Under the pieces are notes generated by a model. It was not told the origin of the DNA. It saw only the letters and a program-made list of their open reading frames with translations, and made no database searches. DNA of 64,000 nucleotides from NCBI GenBank assembly GCA_002315325.1, contig DCGU01000054.1, positions 24,078 to 88,077 on the forward strand, read 5' to 3'. Made by a program: the position numbers and the translations under genes. The stretch is from Clostridiales bacterium UBA1770. GTDB lineage: Bacteria; Bacillota; Clostridia; Oscillospirales; CAG-272. Shown here one piece after another: positions 2,958 to 43,539 of the stretch (the first letter of the stretch is position 1; every line of letters begins with the position of its first letter).

Positions 2958-4499
2958 ATGGATATCATCATCCCGATTATTGTCGGGGTCGTCGCATTGA
3001 TCGGCGGTGCTGCCGGTATGTGGTACTATTGTGCCAAGGCAGCGAACGGTAAGCTCAAGACGGCGGAAACACAGGCAAATCAGATTGTGCAGGACGGTCA
3101 GAAAAAGGCCGAAACCGCCAAGAAAGAAGCCCTGCTGGAAGCCAAGGAAGACATTATCCGTCAGCGGAACGAAGCTGAACGCGAAATGAAAGAACGCCGT
3201 GCCGAAATCACGCGCCAGGAACGTTGGATTACCCAGAAAGAAGAAAATCTGGATAAGAAGACCGAAGCGCTGGAGCACAAGAACGACACCCTGGACAAAA
3301 AAATCAAAGAAAACGAAGAACTGCAGGAAAAGATCCAAGAGGAACTGCAGAAACAGACAGACAAACTGGAAGAAATTTCCGGTTATACTGCCGAAGAAGC
3401 CAAGAACGAACTGATTGCGGAAATGGAATCGCAGTGCCGTCACGAAATGGCGCAGCGGTTGGATGAATTGGAACAGGAATTCAAGGATGAAGCCGACACG
3501 AAGGCCAAAAACATTCTGTCGCTTGCCATCCAAAGATGCGCTGCCGACCAGGTATCCGAAACGGCTGTTTCCGTCGTTACGATCCCCAGCGATGAAATGA
3601 AGGGACGCATTATCGGTCGTGAAGGCCGTAACATCCAGAAGTTGGAACAGCTGACCGGTGTGGAACTCATTATTGACGACACGCCCGAGGCCATCACCAT
3701 TTCCGGATTTGATCCCGTCCGCCGCGAAGTTGCGAGAATGGCATTGGAAAAGTTAATTTCCGACGGCCGTATCCACCCTGCCCGCATTGAGGAAATGGTG
3801 GAAAAAGCACAGCGTGAGGTTGACGCCGAGGTCAAACAGGCCGGCGAACGCGCCACCTTTGAAACCGGTGTACACGGCATCCATCCCGATCTGATTAAGA
3901 TGCTGGGTCGGTTGCGTTACCGCACCAGTTACGGACAGAACGTCCTGCAGCACTCCATTGAGGTTGCTTTCCTTGCCGGCATGATGGCCGACGAACTCGG
4001 CGTTGATACCGCCACTGCAAAACGTGCAGGTCTTTTGCACGATATCGGTAAATCCGCTCCCCACGACGTGGAAGGTTCCCACGTGGAAATCGGTGTGACC
4101 GCTGCCAAGAAGTACAAGGAAAGACCCGAAGTTATTCACGCGATTGAGGCGCACCACAACGACGTGGAACCCCAGACCATTATCGCCATCTTGGTACAGG
4201 CCGCCGATGCGATTTCCGCAGCGAGACCCGGTGCCAGACGCGCAGACCTGGAAAACTACATCAAGCGTCTTGAAAAATTGGAAGAAATTGCAACCGGATT
4301 CGAGGGCGTTGAAAAAGCGTTCGCCATTCAGGCCGGTCGTGAAATCCGCGTTATGGTCAAGCCGGAAGACGTCAACGATGACGGCATGAAGCTGATCGCA
4401 CGCGAGATGGCACAAAAAATCCAGGATGAAGTCAAATATCCCGGACAGATTAAGATTAACGTCATTCGGGAAAGCAGAGCCGTTGACTACGCGAAATAA
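2958..4499 (+). CDS. rny: Ribonuclease Y
   Basis: N-terminal TM helix, coiled-coil, KH motif [11 protein letters not shown] and HD motif LLHDIGK. ATG at 2958 follows AAAGGAGG. Confidence 0.95.
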
Positions 4500-17420: not shown

Positions 17421-17777
17421 TTAATTCGTTAAATTACTTTTTGACGTGTTAATGGAAGAGACGAGCATGACTCTGATGCTTGCGCAGGCAAAATCAAGTG
17501 ATTTATACTCTTCCTCGGAAATATAATTCGTTTTATGTAATAATTCAAGCCAATAACCTGTTTCGTTTGCTTCTTTCAAGGCAATTTGAAGCTTTGCAAC
17601 AAAATCTGCTTTTCCGTGGGCATATTGTGCTTCACGGATGTTCGCACCGATGGAGGTACCGCTTCTGCCGATTTGATTGGAGATGACCGATTCGTGTTTT
17701 CCTTTCAAGTATTTTACCAAATTGATAATGGAAACCGCAAAATCCATAGATTGAACAGATAGCTGATCATTACGCAT
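17421..17777 (-). CDS. Four-helix-bundle protein (23S rRNA intervening-sequence protein / Avd-like family, PF05635-type)
   Basis: QIGRSGTSIGANIREAQ...AKLQIALKEANETGYWLELL is the family signature. ATG 17777 follows AAGGTGAG. The gene is visibly AT-rich relative to its neighbours. Confidence 0.85.
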   Translation of the reverse strand: MRNDQLSVQSMDFAVSIINLVKYLKGKHESVISNQIGRSGTSIGANIREAQYAHGKADFVAKLQIALKEANETGYWLELLHKTNYISEEEYKSLDFACASIRVMLVSSINTSKSNLTN

Positions 17778-17802: not shown

Positions 17803-17831
17803 ATCATAGCAAAATATAACGCTATTGTCAA
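17803..17831 (-). promoter_or_regulatory. sigma-70-type promoter for the four-helix-bundle gene
   Basis: Minus strand reads TTGACA, 17 nt, TATGAT. The -35 overlaps the outermost CTTCATT repeat. Confidence 0.5.
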
Positions 17832-18075
17832 TGAAGACACTCGCTTCGCTCGTTATTCTTTCATTAGCCTATGAAAACAATATTCGAAAGTAATTGCTTC
17901 ATTAATGAAGACACTCGCTTCGCTCGTTAATGAAGACGGTGCTGCGCACCTAATGAAGACGTGCTGCGCACTAATGAAGCGAAGTCGCCCTCGTTTCTCC
18001 CGTTCTCCCATTATCATTAGCGAAGCGTCTTCATTTCTTCATTCCTTCATTAGCCCGTAAGGGCGACTTCATTCA
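17829..18075 (-). repeat. tRNA-linked cluster of AATGAAG/CTTCATT heptamers alternating with GC mini-hairpins (cluster 1)
   Basis: 5 forward and about 6 reverse heptamers. Mini-hairpins include GGTGC-TGC-GCACC, GTGC-TGC-GCAC and GCCC-GTAA-GGGC. Exact 26-bp direct repeat at 17830-17855 and 17904-17929. Confidence 0.8.
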
Positions 18076-18116
18076 CCAAAAAAGCAGGGCAGACCTTTTG
18101 GTCTGCCCTGCTTTTT
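18074..18116 (-). terminator. Intrinsic terminator after tRNA-Leu
   Basis: Perfect stem AAAAAAGCAGGGCAGACC/GGTCTGCCCTGCTTTTTT. Confidence 0.85.
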
Positions 18117-31020: not shown

Positions 31021-31097
31021 GCGGCATTAGCTCAGCTGGATAGAGTGCCTGGCTACGAACCAGTAGGTCGGGGGTTCGAATCCCTTATGTCGCGCCA
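31021..31097 (+). tRNA. tRNA-Arg (anticodon ACG), CCA encoded
   Basis: Manual fold: acceptor GCGGCAT/ATGTCGC, D-arm GCTCAGCTGGATAGAGT, anticodon loop CTACGAA, T-loop GGTTCGAATCC. Collinear with E. coli tRNA-Arg(ACG). Confidence 0.9.
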
Positions 31098-31099
31098 AC

Positions 31100-31140
31100 A
31101 AAAAACACCTTTTGTCTTTTGACAAAAGGTGTTTTTTGTT
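31100..31140 (+). terminator. Intrinsic terminator after tRNA-Arg
   Basis: Perfect 17-bp stem AAAAAACACCTTTTGTC/GACAAAAGGTGTTTTTT. Confidence 0.85.
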
Positions 31141-31316
31141 GGCGAATGAAGCGCGCCTGCAGCGCATGAAAAATGAAGCAGGGCTTCGCCCCGTGAAGCG
31201 TGCCTGCGGCACACGGAGAAGTAACATTGCGCGCTTCGCTTCATAGCGGCTTTGCCGCTGCTTCATGAAAACCGTAAGGTTTTCGCTTCACGTTTGCGCA
31301 GCAAACGCTTCATTGC
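31141..31316 (+). repeat. tRNA-linked cluster of ATGAAGC/GCTTCAT motifs alternating with GC mini-hairpins (cluster 2)
   Basis: The left half carries forward AATGAAGC motifs and the right half carries GCTTCAT(T). Mini-hairpins include GTGCC-TGC-GGCAC, AGCGGC-TTT-GCCGCT, GAAAACC-GTAA-GGTTTTC and CGTTTGC-GCA-GCAAACG. Confidence 0.8.
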
Positions 31317-31390
31317 CGGTGTTGTCATGACGCAGAAAAGCATTTCGTGTATAGAATATCCCGCAACATCAAAAATAATATGCCAAACTA

Positions 31391-31419
31391 TTGACCGATT
31401 TTGTGAAAAAAGATATAAT
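31391..31419 (+). promoter_or_regulatory. sigma-70-type promoter for fba
   Basis: TTGACC, 17 nt, TATAAT. Confidence 0.65.
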
Positions 31420-31464: not shown

Positions 31465-32424
31465 ATGGCATTAGTTACTACCAAAGAGATGTTCAAAAAA
31501 GCCTACGACGGCCACTACGCCATCGGTGCTTTTAACATCAACAACATGGAAATCGTGCAGGCCATTACCGAGGCTGCCGGCGAACTGCGTTCCCCCGTTA
31601 TTCTGCAGGCTTCCGCAGGTGCCCGCAAGTATGCGAAACCCGCTTATCTGAAGGCATTGGCACAGGCTGCCGTTGAAGACAGCGGTATCGACCTGGCCCT
31701 CCACCTGGACCACGGCGCTGACTTCGAAGTATGCAAGGACTGCATCGACGGTGGTTTCACCTCCGTTATGATCGACGGTTCCCACCATTCCTTCGAGGAC
31801 AACATCGCCCTGACCAAGAAGGTTGTTGAATACGCTCACGCTCACGGCGTTGTCGTTGAGGGTGAACTCGGTGTGCTGGCCGGCATCGAAGACGCCGTTT
31901 CCTCCGCCACCTCCTCTTACACCAGACCCGAAGAAGTAGAAGAGTTCGTCACCAAGACCGGTGTTGACTCCCTGGCTATTTCCATCGGTACCAGCCACGG
32001 TGCATACAAGTTCACCGCTGCGCAGTGCACGAGAAACGAAAAAGGCATTTTGGTTCCTCCTCCTCTCCGCTTTGACATTCTGGAGGAAGTTTCCCGTCGT
32101 CTGCCCGGTTTCCCGATCGTTCTGCACGGTGCATCTTCCGTTCCCCAGGAATACGTTGCCGAAATCAACAAGCTCGGCGGTCAGCTGCCGGATGCCGTCG
32201 GTATTCCCGAAGAACAGCTGCGCAAGGCCGCTACTCTGGCTGTCTGCAAGATCAATATCGACTCCGATATTCGTCTGGCCATGACTGCCGGTATCCGCCG
32301 CGTATTCAGTGAGAGCCCCTCTATCTTCGACCCCCGCGAATACCTCAAGGTTGCCCGCGCAGAGGTTAAGAAGATGGTAGCACATAAGATCAGCGACGTG
32401 CTTGGCTCTACCAACACCCTGTAA
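31465..32424 (+). CDS. fba: Class II fructose-1,6-bisphosphate aldolase
   Basis: MALVTTKEMFKKAYDGHYAIGAFNINNME, LHLDHG and ISIGTSHGAYKF motifs. Confidence 0.95.
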   Translation: MALVTTKEMFKKAYDGHYAIGAFNINNMEIVQAITEAAGELRSPVILQASAGARKYAKPAYLKALAQAAVEDSGIDLALHLDHGADFEVCKDCIDGGFTSVMIDGSHHSFEDNIALTKKVVEYAHAHGVVVEGELGVLAGIEDAVSSATSSYTRPEEVEEFVTKTGVDSLAISIGTSHGAYKFTAAQCTRNEKGILVPPPLRFDILEEVSRRLPGFPIVLHGASSVPQEYVAEINKLGGQLPDAVGIPEEQLRKAATLAVCKINIDSDIRLAMTAGIRRVFSESPSIFDPREYLKVARAEVKKMVAHKISDVLGSTNTL

Positions 32425-35564: not shown

Positions 35565-37160
35565 TTATCCACGGCGTACGGGCAAAGACAAAACGCTGTT
35601 GCCGAACCAAACGGTATTATCGGCGACCACGGTTTCTACCGCCGTCAGCCACTCGGCACGGGTGTTGGTGTGGGGACGGTAGGAGTGCGCGTCGCTCGAC
35701 ATCACGTCCACGCGCAGGCGCTCCCCTTTGTGCAGCGTCCAGCAAAGCGGATCCGTTTCAAACGTAATCGTCGTTTTTTCACCGGCCGCAGCGGGATTGA
35801 GTTCAGTCGGACAGTCGCCCATGGGCGTTGCAACACCGTTTTCCTGCACGCAGCAAACGCGGATTAAGAACATCGTGGCCTGCGCCGTCGTGGAAACCTC
35901 GAAGGACGCCGCAATTTTACCGGCGAGCGTCAAATCTTGTGTCAGGGGCGCCGTCATAAAGGTTTTAACGTCGGGACGGAAATTCGGTTCGGGCTGGTCG
36001 GCAAAACCGTTGGGGGTATGGTCGAACGAGTTGGGACCGCCGGGGAAACGGGCGGGATCCAGGGGGTCGTAGCGGTAGGTGACACTGCCGTCGGCAGGCG
36101 CGCAATCCGTCAGTTTGCCGCCGTCTACCAAATACAGTTTTTTCGTCTGTGCTTCGTCCGGGAAGGCGTCGGCACATTCCCACGCGGCTTTCCCAACGTG
36201 GTAGTAGTTGACGGCACCGAGTCGGACGCCGTTGTCCATCGGTTTGCCGTCGCGCAGATATAGGAACCATTGCATTTCCAGGTCGCGCGGTTGATTGCCG
36301 TTTTCAAAGGGGTACGACCAGGTCGGGTCCACCGCGCAGCCGTGGCTCCAGGGACCGACGACGAAGGCGCAGGACGACTTAATCCCGGCGGGAATCTTAT
36401 CCCACATGCGCCAGGTGCCGCTGAAGAAAGGTTCCGACCATCCCGTCACCATCAGCATGGGCGTATGCAGTTTGGTCATACAGTTGAACGCCTGTGAAAA
36501 ATAGTCCGGCATGGCCATGGGGTCATTGCGCAAATACCAAATGTTATTGAATGCGGGCACGTCGTAGCCGTATATGCGGCGCATATACGTGCTCATGGGA
36601 TTTTTATCCCATTCGGCGTCGTAACTGCCGTGCGCGCTGCCGTAAATCAAATCCTGATAGTGGTAGACACCGGGGAACCAAATGGGCCCCAAGTCAGCCT
36701 TAAAAACGCCGTTGCGGAAGAACGTATATCTGCCGTCGTCCGCCATGACTGCCGTAAACGCGCCCTTGACGCTGGGGGGCAGCACCTCGTACATCGCCAG
36801 CTGCACAAATCCCAGGTAGCTGCCGCCGGTTAAGTAAATGCGGCCGTCGAACCAGGGCTGCTGCTCGATCCAGGCAATGGTATCCAACCCGTCGGCACGT
36901 TCGTCGTGGAAGGGCACGAAGTCCCCTTCACTGCCGCCCTTGCCGCGGCAGTTCTGATCGACGCGGGCAAATCCGTTTTGTGCTGCGTAACTTTCCGGCA
37001 GATTTTCCTGTACTTCCGGTACGTCGGCAGCGGGGGCCGGGGCATAGGGGTTACGGGAAAGAATGGCCGGGTATTTGCCCGTGCCGTCACCCGGCAGTTC
37101 CACCCAGGTCAGCAGTTTAACGCCGTCACGCATGGCCGGACGGCAAATCATTTTCTTCAT
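35565..37160 (-). CDS. CocE/NonD family hydrolase (S15 X-Pro dipeptidyl-peptidase-like)
   Basis: N-terminus MRDGVKLLTWVELPGDG...AILSRNPY, a GGSYLG nucleophile elbow and a C-terminal beta-sandwich. Confidence 0.8.
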   Translation of the reverse strand: MKKMICRPAMRDGVKLLTWVELPGDGTGKYPAILSRNPYAPAPAADVPEVQENLPESYAAQNGFARVDQNCRGKGGSEGDFVPFHDERADGLDTIAWIEQQPWFDGRIYLTGGSYLGFVQLAMYEVLPPSVKGAFTAVMADDGRYTFFRNGVFKADLGPIWFPGVYHYQDLIYGSAHGSYDAEWDKNPMSTYMRRIYGYDVPAFNNIWYLRNDPMAMPDYFSQAFNCMTKLHTPMLMVTGWSEPFFSGTWRMWDKIPAGIKSSCAFVVGPWSHGCAVDPTWSYPFENGNQPRDLEMQWFLYLRDGKPMDNGVRLGAVNYYHVGKAAWECADAFPDEAQTKKLYLVDGGKLTDCAPADGSVTYRYDPLDPARFPGGPNSFDHTPNGFADQPEPNFRPDVKTFMTAPLTQDLTLAGKIAASFEVSTTAQATMFLIRVCCVQENGVATPMGDCPTELNPAAAGEKTTITFETDPLCWTLHKGERLRVDVMSSDAHSYRPHTNTRAEWLTAVETVVADNTVWFGNSVLSLPVRRG

Positions 37161-37275
37161 AAAGGCGTCTCCTTACGTTTTTTACGATATTTCATTTCTC
37201 AATGGAGCGTTTTTGCTTTTTTCGGGCGATTGTTCGTCGGTTCTTGATTGGCCGGTCAAGCGTATCATAGCCTCT

Positions 37276-38256
37276 TTATTTCGCATCGGCAAATATGCCT
37301 TGGTACCAATCGCGTTCATATAAATAGGCGTCGATATCGTTGAGCACCGTAATTTTGTTGCGGCTCCATATCGGGGCCAGCAAATCTGCGGCCTGCCCGT
37401 CGCCCGTCAGCCGGCATATGACAACGTCGCCGGGCAGACGCGTGAGCGCCTGTGCGGTCAGGCGCACGTAGTCGGCCCGTTCCATCGGCCGATATTCCCC
37501 TGCCTCGTACGCGGTGCCCAACCGCGTGCCGCGCAGGACGTGCAAAAGGTGAATCTTGATTTGGTCGGGGTGCAGCCGCGCAACGTCGTCAATCGTTTGC
37601 ATCATTTCCCGCTCGGTTTCCCCCGGCAGACCGAAGATGACGTGGGTACAAATTTGAATACGGGGTGCGGCTTTGCGCAAGGCCGCAAATCCGGTGCAAA
37701 ACTGCGCCATGGTATGGCCGCGATTGATGCGTGCGGCCGTGGCGTCGTTCGACGACTGCAGGCCGAGTTCCAACGTCAAAACGGTTCTTTCCGACAGCTC
37801 TGCCAGATAGGCAAGAACGTCGGGCGCCAGACAGTCGGCGCGCGTGGCGATATTCAATCCCACGACGCCGGGATAGGTCAATGCTTCTTCAAAAACGGTT
37901 TTCAGCCGCTGCAGCGGCGCATAGGTGTTGGTGTGCGCCTGGAAATAGGCGATGCAGCGCTCCCGTGCCGCCGGCCATTTTATCGTCAGCTTTTCACGCT
38001 GCTCGATATACTGTATATCAAGCGGCACGTTTGCGGACAGGGCGTTATCGCCGGACCCGCGGGGGGAACAGTAGATGCAGCCGCCGCGGCCGCAGGTGCC
38101 GTCGATATTGGGACAGGTCATACCGGCGTCCAGCGGCACCTTAATACATTTGCCGCCGAACGTCCGCTTCAGATAAAAATCGTAGGTATAATACCGCTTG
38201 TTGCTGTCGGAGAGCGGAAACGGGTTATTCATACTTTGCGTTGGCCGTTTTTCCAC
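37276..38256 (-). CDS. TIGR01212-family radical SAM protein (YtqA-like)
   Basis: KVPLDAGMTCPNIDGTCGRGGCIYCS cluster motif. GTG start after AAGGGGAG. Confidence 0.85.
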   Translation of the reverse strand: MEKRPTQSMNNPFPLSDSNKRYYTYDFYLKRTFGGKCIKVPLDAGMTCPNIDGTCGRGGCIYCSPRGSGDNALSANVPLDIQYIEQREKLTIKWPAARERCIAYFQAHTNTYAPLQRLKTVFEEALTYPGVVGLNIATRADCLAPDVLAYLAELSERTVLTLELGLQSSNDATAARINRGHTMAQFCTGFAALRKAAPRIQICTHVIFGLPGETEREMMQTIDDVARLHPDQIKIHLLHVLRGTRLGTAYEAGEYRPMERADYVRLTAQALTRLPGDVVICRLTGDGQAADLLAPIWSRNKITVLNDIDAYLYERDWYQGIFADAK

Positions 38257-43279: not shown

Positions 43280-43426
43280 TCATCATTTCCGTTTGTGCCT
43301 TTGTTGGGCAATTACTTGCCGTTTTTCTCACAAACTCACGGTGAAATGATACCGAAGGGCACCCGCCGAATCTTTCGATAAACCCTTCCCTCGTCAACCG
43401 CGGTGAAATTACGGTCCCGGCGCTAT
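43280..43426 (-). ncRNA. glmS: glmS ribozyme (GlcN6P-responsive self-cleaving riboswitch) in the glmS leader
   Basis: Minus strand reads A/GCGCCGGGACC...GACGAGGGAAGGGUUUAUCGAAAGAUUCGGCGGGUGCCC...AUCAUUUC...GGAAAUGAU. This is collinear with the B. subtilis ribozyme core (AGCGCC, GACGAGG, UAUCGAA, UUCGGCGG, UGCC). The 3' boundary is approximate. Confidence 0.88.
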
Positions 43427-43539
43427 GCAATATCGTCCGCCTCACTTTTATTGTCCGGCAGTCCTGCATTCTTTTTTGCCGCGGCTTTCACTCCTTTCGA
43501 CCCGCGGTGAACGCAATCATTATACGAAATTTGTTCGTC

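Follow-up and report, generated by a model that had tools for sequence, protein, structure and literature searches.

A gene-less heptamer-and-hairpin array behind tRNA-Arg is a copy of a dispersed repeat of gut and rumen Oscillospirales, probably derived from an element with a four-helix-bundle gene

Introduction

The subject of this report is a tract of 170 nucleotides (nt) in a 64,000-nt stretch of DNA from Clostridiales bacterium UBA1770 (GenBank assembly GCA_002315325.1, contig DCGU01000054.1, positions 24,078 to 88,077 of the forward strand). The whole stretch is called the window and is numbered from its first letter. The tract occupies the 3' flank of a tRNA-Arg gene and is built from heptamers of the type AATGAAG in a left arm and of the complementary type CTTCATT in a right arm, with G+C-rich hairpins between them. 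The original prediction, made from the letters of the window alone, had left this element unnamed. It can now be placed as a gene-less copy of a heptamer-armed family that is associated with genes for four-helix-bundle (4HB) proteins and is similar to the intervening sequences (IVSs) of ribosomal RNA genes.

Genes of the 4HB family, also known as the '23S rRNA IVS protein' family, occur here and there in the genomes of bacteria and phages, in many cases inside an operon, and the family is among the most abundant ones of unknown function. To our knowledge, its function has remained unknown since the early 1990s, with the exception of the Avd branch in diversity-generating retroelements (DGRs). 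The analysis below finds that 4HB genes come with characteristic non-coding inverted heptamer arms, that the heptamer shifts with the protein lineage and that gene-less arrays outnumber the gene-bearing copies, and these findings make the function of the 4HB or IVS protein directly testable.

Results

The Array behind tRNA-Arg

The features of the locus are collected in Table 1. The array lies directly 3' of the terminator of tRNA-Arg and its right half mirrors its left half, as had been proposed, and the earlier parse of the tract into heptamers and mini-hairpins matches the sequence exactly. The left arm has four heptamers and the right arm four to five. Each of the six spacers of the array folds into a perfect stem, of 4-6 bp or of 7 bp when the sequence is read directly. 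The two outer edges, 12-13 nt each, are inverted repeats of each other, GGCGAATGAAGCG / CGCTTCATTGCC, at 31141-31153 and 31306-31317. The distal arm of the terminator, GTTGGCG, is complementary to the 3' end of the tRNA-Arg in front of it, CGCCAAC.

Chance is excluded as the origin of this pattern. The heptamer AATGAAG occurs 22 times in the window, where 7.3 +/- 2.7 occurrences are expected, and it clusters solely at two tRNA flanks, the second of which belongs to tRNA-Leu(GAG). The pattern CTTCAT-N10-24-CTTCAT-N10-24-CTTCA has four matches in the window and none in 100 shuffles, and the fold of the 180-nt tract is 4.0-4.5 standard deviations better than that of dinucleotide shuffles, both as RNA of either strand and as DNA.

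No promoter-like site was found inside the array on either strand, and a self-standing small RNA gene is therefore unsupported. The next gene is fba (coding sequence 31465-32424, + strand), with a promoter about 75 nt past the array. No 4HB gene adjoins the array, which makes it a solo copy. Homologs of fba with 84-89% identity were tried as a source of the empty site. What they have upstream is a gene for fucose isomerase or for a GH38 mannosidase, and the only part of this upstream DNA that can be aligned to the window is the fba promoter. Because these relatives have other genes upstream and no tRNA-Arg, a comparison of filled and empty sites is not possible through them. A high-scoring fba match of 411 amino acids (P0001) belongs to an unrelated locus.

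Table 1. Features of the tRNA-Arg locus, of the sibling tRNA-Leu locus and of one unrelated RNA element, in window coordinates
Feature	Position	Strand	Basis or remark
tRNA-Arg (anticodon ACG)	31021-31097	+	ARAGORN; Rfam tRNA 59 bits
Symmetric (A-run / T-run) intrinsic terminator hairpin	31093-31144	+	Inverted repeat, 24-nt arms, 100% complementary
Whole gene-less element, 170 nt: left arm, centre, right arm	31145-31314	+	Covariance model, inverted repeats, folds
Left arm	31145-31212	+	Sequence, repeat families, stems of at least 4 bp
Left-arm heptamers	AATGAAG 31145-51; ATGAAAA 31166-72; AATGAAG 31172-78; GTGAAG 31193-98	+	
Left-arm hairpins	GCGC/GCGC 31153-65; GGGC-TTC-GCCC 31181-91; GTGCC-TGC-GGCAC 31200-12	+	
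5' strand of predicted long-range helix, GAAGCGCGC	31148-31156	+	Pairs with GCGCGCTTC at 31229-31237; 9-nt inverted repeat, 100% complementary
Centre, 16 nt (ACGGAGAAGTAACATT), plus 3' strand of long-range helix (GCGCGCTTC, 31229-37)	31213-31237	+	Alignment
Right arm	31238-31314	+	Sequence, repeats, stems
Right-arm heptamers	GCTTCAT 31238-44; GCTTCAT 31260-66; GCTTCAC 31285-91; CTTCATT 31308-14	+	
Right-arm hairpins	AGCGGC-TTT-GCCGCT 31245-59; GAAAACC-GTAA-GGTTTTC 31267-84; CGTTTGC-GCA-GCAAACG 31291-307	+	
Promoter-like site of fba, TTGACC-17-TATAAT	31391-31419	+	Outside the element; marks the limit of its right flank
Sibling full-length element after the tRNA-Leu(GAG) terminator	17904-18073	-	Covariance model, 101 bits, E = 3e-24, end to end
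Partial second array beyond the sibling element	17830-17903	-	Sequence
4HB gene, 118 amino acids, directly downstream of the tRNA-Leu array	17421-17777	-	PF05635, TIGR02436
glmS ribozyme, unrelated to the array	43281-43435	-	Rfam RF00234, 86.7 bits; in keeping with a genome of the Firmicutes type

A Dispersed Family of Repeats

A covariance model, R1, was built on 16 metagenome copies of the element, with both arrays of the window left out. The model finds the tRNA-Arg array from 31145 to 31314 (model positions 1-183, 38.7 bits, E = 1.9e-8), and in the alignment this copy is collinear with 18 metagenome copies. The likeness between the tRNA-Leu and tRNA-Arg arrays, which had been noticed by eye, is true homology, since both match, end to end, one and the same model made from unrelated metagenome copies. 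Beyond these two arrays, R1 has no match of significance in the window. A candidate third copy at 37158-37280 was rejected, as its covariance match is weak (E = 0.43) and the heptamers are absent.

For a scan of genomes, with one genome per species, three CTTCATT heptamers 11-21 nt apart were required; this is a tightened form of the pattern CTTCAT three times over, which had been judged too unspecific on viral contigs, its matches there being taken for chance ones and coding repeats. The scan gave ten clear look-alike loci in nine Oscillospirales genomes, all of them metagenome-assembled genomes (MAGs) from gut or rumen, and six of the ten adjoin a gene for tRNA or transfer-messenger RNA (tmRNA). 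Among the 120 matches listed, about half were rejected as repeats of 21-nt period in long open reading frames (ORFs) of the coiled-coil NEELQS type (e.g., L123, L127, L134 and L160); these false positives come from Bacteroidota, Cyanobacteria and Proteobacteria. Another rejected group consists of plain tandem heptamers in Bacteroidota.

When one conserved module, AATGAAGNCGCTTCGCTAATGA, was used as the query in metagenomes, at least 120 loci from gut and rumen were found. From these copies the canonical element can be described as follows. It is about 170-176 nt long and starts from the left with AATGAAG, an 18-nt hairpin, AATGAAG, 2 nt, AATGAAG, ACGCTTCGCT and AATGAAG. Then comes a centre of about 40 nt, followed by CTTCATT heptamers with spacers of 19, 19 and 17 nt and by a terminal CTTCATT. 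Read outward, an arm obeys a simple grammar, in which the unit CTTCATT - AG - [G+C-rich stem of 4-7 bp with a loop of 3-4 nt] - (C)GT - CTTCATT occurs about four times. The tRNA-Arg copy belongs to a subfamily with the left end AAGCGCNCC..GCATGAAAAATGAAG, members of which stand behind tRNA-Arg(CCG), behind tRNA-Asn and at sites with no tRNA. Since one subfamily is present at several unlike sites, the family is a dispersed repeat and not an oddity of one locus. These sequence comparisons give good support to the identification of 31145-31314 as a single full copy, devoid of genes, of a dispersed repeat that measures about 170-180 nt and is common in Oscillospirales of gut and rumen.

Rfam 15 has no match to the array at gathering or permissive thresholds. 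The sub-threshold hits are chance ones, centred on the terminator hairpin or just past the array, and the longest of them extends into the left arm. No match to the element came from the collections of plasmids and phages, which were searched at 'distant' sensitivity. Plain tandem arrays of the form (AATGAAG)n - centre - (CTTCATT)n, without hairpins, are seen at L136, L181, L215, L237 and L241, with Bacteroidota, one acidobacterial MAG and one Clostridia MAG (L237) as hosts. No 4HB gene was detected in the 8-kb loci around these five arrays, and they may represent this class of element, in its solo form, outside the phylum of the window.

Conservation of Structure

The spacers between the heptamers are free in sequence, with 29 different stems among 89 distinct spacers, and they are constrained in structure. 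A perfect stem of at least 4 bp is present in 53% of spacers compared with 7% of shuffled ones, and a stem of at least 5 bp in 37% compared with 1%. The loops are mostly triloops (AAA, GCA, TTC, GAA), and many of the spacers that do not count as hairpins by these measures contain GCGAAGC, a very stable DNA mini-hairpin. Compensatory changes are found both within the tRNA-Arg array, where a GCGC..GCGC unit corresponds to a GTGCC..GGCAC unit, and between loci, where GAAAACC-GTAA-GGTTTTC of the tRNA-Arg array corresponds to GACAAC-GAA-GTTGTC in L269. Units 2 and 3 in the right arm of the tRNA-Arg array are homologous to units of L269 and L332, with stems that differ by compensatory changes.

A helix of longer range is predicted by RNAalifold from 20 copies. 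It pairs the left terminus, (T)GAAG-N-CGCC, with GGCG-N-CTTC just before the first heptamer of the right arm, that is, alignment columns 4-13 with columns 110-119, and in most of the family it reads GAAGTCGCC:GGCGACTTC. Its positions are paired in 98.5% of cells and four of its pairs change on both sides, while none of 500 shuffles reaches it and slid controls are at most 48% paired. The tRNA-Arg copy keeps the helix as GAAGCGCGC:GCGCGCTTC, with three double changes relative to the family consensus. Judged by such changes in the aligned sequences, the arms, the hairpins and one long-range helix appear to be kept by compensation.

The two arms are also mirrored in finer detail. The share of purines in the loops, read on the plus strand, is 67% for the right arm and 28% for the left one, and on the strand that reads CTTCATT the G.T near-pairs outnumber the A.C near-pairs by 9 to 3, a weak trend with mirror symmetry. 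From the mirroring of loops and G.T pairs it follows that the two arms behave as equivalent ends that are read outward from the centre. The units mostly follow each other at 21-25 nt, and a consistent helical phase is absent.

Terminators and tRNA Genes

When the distinct copies with enough upstream sequence are considered, 19 of 91 have a tRNA gene on the same strand that ends at most 90 nt upstream; among the 120 metagenome loci of the raw list, 26 have one 54-111 nt upstream of the module. By a rough arithmetic of our own from typical tRNA density, such proximity has a chance of about 0.1%. The neighbours include at least 12 tRNA species (more if isoacceptors are counted) and tmRNA. Together with the look-alikes at ten genome loci and at least 120 metagenome loci, this bears out the earlier suggestion of a real element class tied to the flanks of tRNA genes and terminators.

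About half of the copies directly follow a hairpin with a T-run. This fraction comes from a reading of the 24-nt flanks, as a scripted terminator test, which flagged 5, was too strict or faulty. For full-length copies the left edge almost always comes after hairpin and T-run, either as TTTTTTC|AATGAAG or as TTTTTTG-(complement of the tRNA 3' end)|AATGAAG. The terminators start 0-2 nt past the CCA of the tRNA.

As at the tRNA-Arg locus (31093-31144), the distal arm of the terminator is complementary to the last 5-9 nt of its own tRNA at the tRNA-Leu locus (18074-18116) and in L271, L294, L313 and L380. A terminator arm that matches the 3' end of its own tRNA means that the palindrome is tailored to each tRNA, and such tailoring could point to fold-back copying, or to a step with RNA or single-stranded DNA, in the making of the junction. 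The same terminator stems, GCACGC/GCGTGC and CCTCGC/GCGAGG, recur in front of arrays at unrelated loci (L257, L295, L317, L350 and L368; L259, L270, L315 and L337), where the loops of these terminators differ; the loop AACA is the reverse complement of another one, TGTT. It may be that the terminator travels with the array.

Variation between Strains

That the length of the array varies between strains, as an expansion and contraction hotspot would have it, had been put forward as a check on the tract and is confirmed. Orthologous tRNA-Arg(CCG) loci from human-gut metagenomes have either one unit in the right arm (L253, L340) or three (L269, L364). The shorter array has the appearance of a deletion product that arose between direct repeats. 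L332 has two intact right-arm heptamers, the first one being degenerate, plus changes in sequence. L388 and L389 represent one locus in two versions that differ by the presence of the terminator and of three units, and in L222 the whole array is duplicated in tandem.

The tRNA-Leu Array and Its 4HB Gene

The sibling element behind tRNA-Leu(GAG), 13 kb from the tRNA-Arg copy, is followed by a 4HB gene. Its product is assigned to PF05635 by a precomputed result for the identical protein and to TIGR02436 with 107.8 bits, and its closest solved structure is PDB 2RLD (E = 2e-32); PADLOC gave no match to this protein. The -35 box of the gene, TTGACA, overlaps the last CTTCATT of the array. Other genes near the two window copies are queA, miaA, fba and a gene for a Wzy_C protein.

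The order tRNA or tmRNA, terminator, array, promoter, 4HB gene holds at 14 of 14 readable loci of this 4HB lineage, among them four homologs that were picked solely for their long contigs, and in L326 the 4HB gene stands between the left and right arms. Close homologs of the protein number in the thousands. The 120 listed are 81-100% identical and mostly on contigs shorter than 3 kb, from which metagenome assemblies seem to break at the repeats in tRNA flanks.

In more distant 4HB lineages the architecture is maintained and the heptamer is exchanged. At 74% identity of the 4HB protein the heptamer is AGTGAAG, at 51-57% it is GTGAAAT, and under about 50% any relation between the heptamers is lost. 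To be specific, L388 and L389 have (A/C)GTGAAG / CTTCACT after tRNA-Leu, and GTGAAAT / ATTTCAC is present after tRNA-Ser in L390 and as two tandem arrays in L392, a locus where no tRNA was found. The 4HB gene lies between the arms in L393 (CAATTGA / TCAATTG), L395 (AGTTAGG / CCTAACT), L398 (CGTAATT / AATTACG) and L399 (GAAATAA / TTATTTC), and L397 has five copies of ATCCTAC downstream of the gene only. In a locus from Bacteroidaceae (L229), AGGAGTT / AACTCCT is inserted between kduI and kduD. In L276, TCGATAT / ATATCGA with hairpins is found about 260 nt upstream of a distant 4HB gene (strand-oriented 3450-3710); the same contig carries an array of the AATGAAG type, so that two element lineages are present in one genome. 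Some versions have no hairpins and consist of plain tandem heptamers on both sides of the 4HB gene.

Twelve loci on viral contigs were found with a 4HB alignment. They comprise the loci from L388 to L399 that are described above and, in addition, L391, L394 and L396, and in these three the tandem heptamers are degenerate. In L394 the 4HB gene is preceded, in this order, by a C-terminus like that of tyrosine integrases, part of a tRNA 3' end, a terminator and a heptamer array; the likeness to integrases comes from a reading of the translation, and the site is a probable prophage border.

In the full-text literature that was searched, heptamer arms around 4HB genes are described only for the IVS of Coxiella. 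The presence of 4HB genes inside cas operons and in rRNA insertions has been reported, with flanking repeats unmentioned. For the link between array and 4HB gene outside ribosomal RNA genes no published description was found, and the known arrangement is the Coxiella rRNA IVS.

Discussion

A Solo Copy of an IVS-like Element

The explanation that we favour, and that we think probable as a whole, is that the tract behind tRNA-Arg is a solo derivative of an IVS-like selfish element, similar in kind to a miniature inverted-repeat transposable element (MITE). This is suggested by three observations: the array precedes all the examined 4HB genes of the lineage, one such gene lies between the arms, and the same architecture recurs elsewhere, the Coxiella IVS included. 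The gene-bearing form is best read as encoding the 4HB protein only.

Consider how such an element would work. The two arms would serve as equivalent ends. The mini-hairpins would fold when the element is in single-stranded form, either in a read-through transcript or in DNA that has been opened by replication or transcription, and the complementary heptamers of the two arms would pair, together with the long-range helix, into an interrupted stem, by analogy akin to the stem that RNase III cuts in the rRNA IVS. The heptamers would most likely be the recognition sites of the pentameric 4HB protein, which the tRNA-Arg copy would receive in trans from the tRNA-Leu copy at a distance of 13 kb. Slippage, or unequal recombination between its direct repeats, would make the array grow and shrink, and the family would have spread by a process that in some way targets terminator hairpins.

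Several observations weigh against this explanation. As these loci are commonly arranged, the 4HB promoter comes after both arms, which thus are outside the 4HB mRNA, and since the arms also lie downstream of a strong terminator, pairing of the arms at the RNA level would need read-through of that terminator. The heptamers are invariant within the family and only the flanking helix covaries, so that pairing from arm to arm is beyond the reach of covariation testing. The parallel change of heptamer and 4HB lineage could reflect the common descent of one unit and not recognition by the protein. A 4HB gene adjoins only about 10 of the 88 arrays with enough downstream sequence; solo arrays such as that of tRNA-Arg are therefore the majority, and the arrays could have a host function that is independent of 4HB. 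Finally, neither a target-site duplication nor an empty site was found, and no direct repeat flanks the 26 full-length copies, which means that mobility is deduced from dispersal only.

An alternative that we consider unlikely is a cis-element of the host, a bidirectional module for insulation or processing that is kept by selection after strongly transcribed stable-RNA genes. Each hairpin with its CUUCAUU would then be a weak back-up terminator, a pause site or an RNase site, the left arm would serve antisense transcription in this way, and 4HB genes would merely prefer such sheltered sites. The position of the array between a terminator and the next promoter fits this idea, as do hairpins that resemble terminators and keep their structure while their sequence is free, the mirrored polarity, in which the strand with the outward reading hairpin-CTTCATT is the one that has the purine-rich loops and the G.T wobbles, and the fact that one unit scores as terminator-like on the minus strand. 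But the units lack T-runs. A consensus scan gives just two overlapping sites, both of which are one left-arm hairpin, where the T-run on the minus strand is supplied by ATGAAAAATGAAG; a T-run at each unit, as back-up terminators would have it, is absent. Moreover, heptamers that are not rich in U (ATATCGA, CAATTGA, CGTAATT) take the same place in the architecture of other 4HB lineages, where there are also hairpin-less versions with plain tandem heptamers around the gene, and the presence of near-identical copies at unrelated loci is the behaviour of a dispersed repeat.

Another alternative, which we hold to be quite improbable, is that terminator and array together form an att-like recombination site at tRNA 3' flanks for cassettes of a single gene, served by a recombinase in trans or by homologous recombination, with the solo arrays as empty or scarred sites. 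The 3' flanks of tRNA and tmRNA genes are classic integration sites. Modules of a tRNA 3' fragment or GCCA, terminator, array and promoter do occur in tandem around single genes (L270, 3400-5800; L307, 800-2600; L203; L337), and the series of integrase C-terminus, partial tRNA end, array and 4HB gene in L394 is of the expected kind. Against this, the arrays begin past the terminator and not within the tRNA gene, no integrase is near either copy in the window, the same arms flank 4HB genes in phage operons and in rRNA genes with no tRNA att site, and a conserved core like that of known attC or dif sites is absent. As a separate observation, the second module copy in L307 is fused to a truncated 4HB pseudogene.

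A repeat of the repetitive extragenic palindromic (REP) type, or a bacterial interspersed mosaic element (BIME), mobilised by a REP-associated tyrosine transposase (RAYT; IS200/IS605-like Y1), would also be an extragenic mosaic of small palindromic units in both orientations near gene ends, but is highly improbable, as the palindromes here are free in sequence with the conserved motif between them, where a REP palindrome is itself conserved with a 5' GTAG, as a match in Rfam or another library is absent, and as the consistent genetic partner is 4HB and not a Y1 transposase. The earlier term 'BIME-like' can thus be retained as an analogy, for intergenic mosaics of small palindromes, and has to be given up as a classification.

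If the tRNA-Arg tract is a solo derivative of an IVS-like element, the idea can be generalised, although at this breadth it is offered only tentatively. Stand-alone genes of PF05635/TIGR02436 in general might be the cargo of small, so far unrecognised selfish elements with inverted arms of lineage-specific 7-nt repeats, and the 4HB protein might recognise its own heptamers and thereby promote the spread or maintenance of both the gene-bearing and the more common gene-less forms. Were this so, the rRNA IVSs, the tRNA and tmRNA arrays of Oscillospirales, the tandem-heptamer arrays of Bacteroidota and the insertions in phage and cas operons would be one phenomenon. It may also be, and this is speculation, that precise junctions at the 3' ends of terminators, which themselves start 0-2 nt after CCA, reflect a mobility intermediate of RNA or single-stranded DNA, in an echo of the partnership of Avd with reverse transcriptases.

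The arrays also matter in practice. They would explain why assemblies break at tRNA flanks in gut Clostridia, they can be used as strain-variable markers, and annotation pipelines could mis-call them as terminators or as features like clustered regularly interspaced short palindromic repeats (CRISPR).

Comparison with Known Systems

The targets of DGRs need a G+C-rich hairpin nearby, and Avd is an accessory factor of nucleic acids and reverse transcriptase. Avd of these retroelements is homologous to the 4HB protein (PMC10053308). Unlike the situation in DGRs, a reverse transcriptase and a pair of template and variable repeats are absent near both window copies and the related loci that were examined.

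The ends of Tn7, Mu and Tn402 also have several short, directly repeated sites per end, inverted between the ends. Some transposons with such multi-site ends home downstream of glmS or tRNA genes, which is similar to the site preference of the arrays. Here, however, the sites are 7 nt long instead of about 20 nt, and TGT termini, a 5-bp duplication and transposase genes are lacking.

The REPs and BIMEs of enterobacteria and pseudomonads are likewise mosaics outside genes, in which small palindromic units occur in either orientation, often close to the 3' end of a gene. In them the palindrome with its GTAG head is conserved, whereas in the arrays the palindromes vary and the heptamer between them is conserved; an association with RAYT was not seen for the arrays in the 64-kb window, the part of this genome that was examined.

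The likeness to MITEs such as Correia/NEMIS, RUP and ERIC extends to a non-coding sequence of about 175 nt with terminal inverted repeats, many dispersed copies in subfamilies, longer gene-bearing relatives and assemblies that break at the copies. The array family differs from MITEs in that no target-site duplication is seen and that its partner gene cannot be recognised as one for a transposase. Its insertions are strongly restricted to one position, the base that follows a terminator hairpin, and its arms are internally repetitive.

The closest parallel is with the rRNA IVSs, i.e., the helix-45 IVS of Coxiella burnetii and those of Leptospira, Brucella, Xanthomonas and Haemophilus. In Coxiella burnetii the ORF of S23p, a 4HB protein, stands in the 23S rRNA IVS behind three to four tandem GACAGAT heptamers; strains differ in how many of these they have, and the first repeat is where RNase III cleaves (PMC4990558); rRNA insertions without an ORF are on record as well (PMC11270868). 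The differences are those of place and form. An rRNA IVS with the S23p ORF is inserted in helix 25 or helix 45 of a 23S rRNA gene. The tRNA-Arg copy comes after a tRNA terminator and outside the mature transcript, in a window where rRNA is absent, and it has no ORF. Its heptamers are split by G+C-rich mini-hairpins and are not strictly tandem, and in its lineage both arms lie upstream of a gene with a promoter of its own; the folds described here are predicted ones. The likenesses are those of composition. Both systems have the same partner family, a four-helix-bundle protein that forms a pentameric toroid, both have inverted arms of 7-nt direct repeats in a number that varies between strains, and both are associated with stable-RNA genes and exist in gene-less versions.

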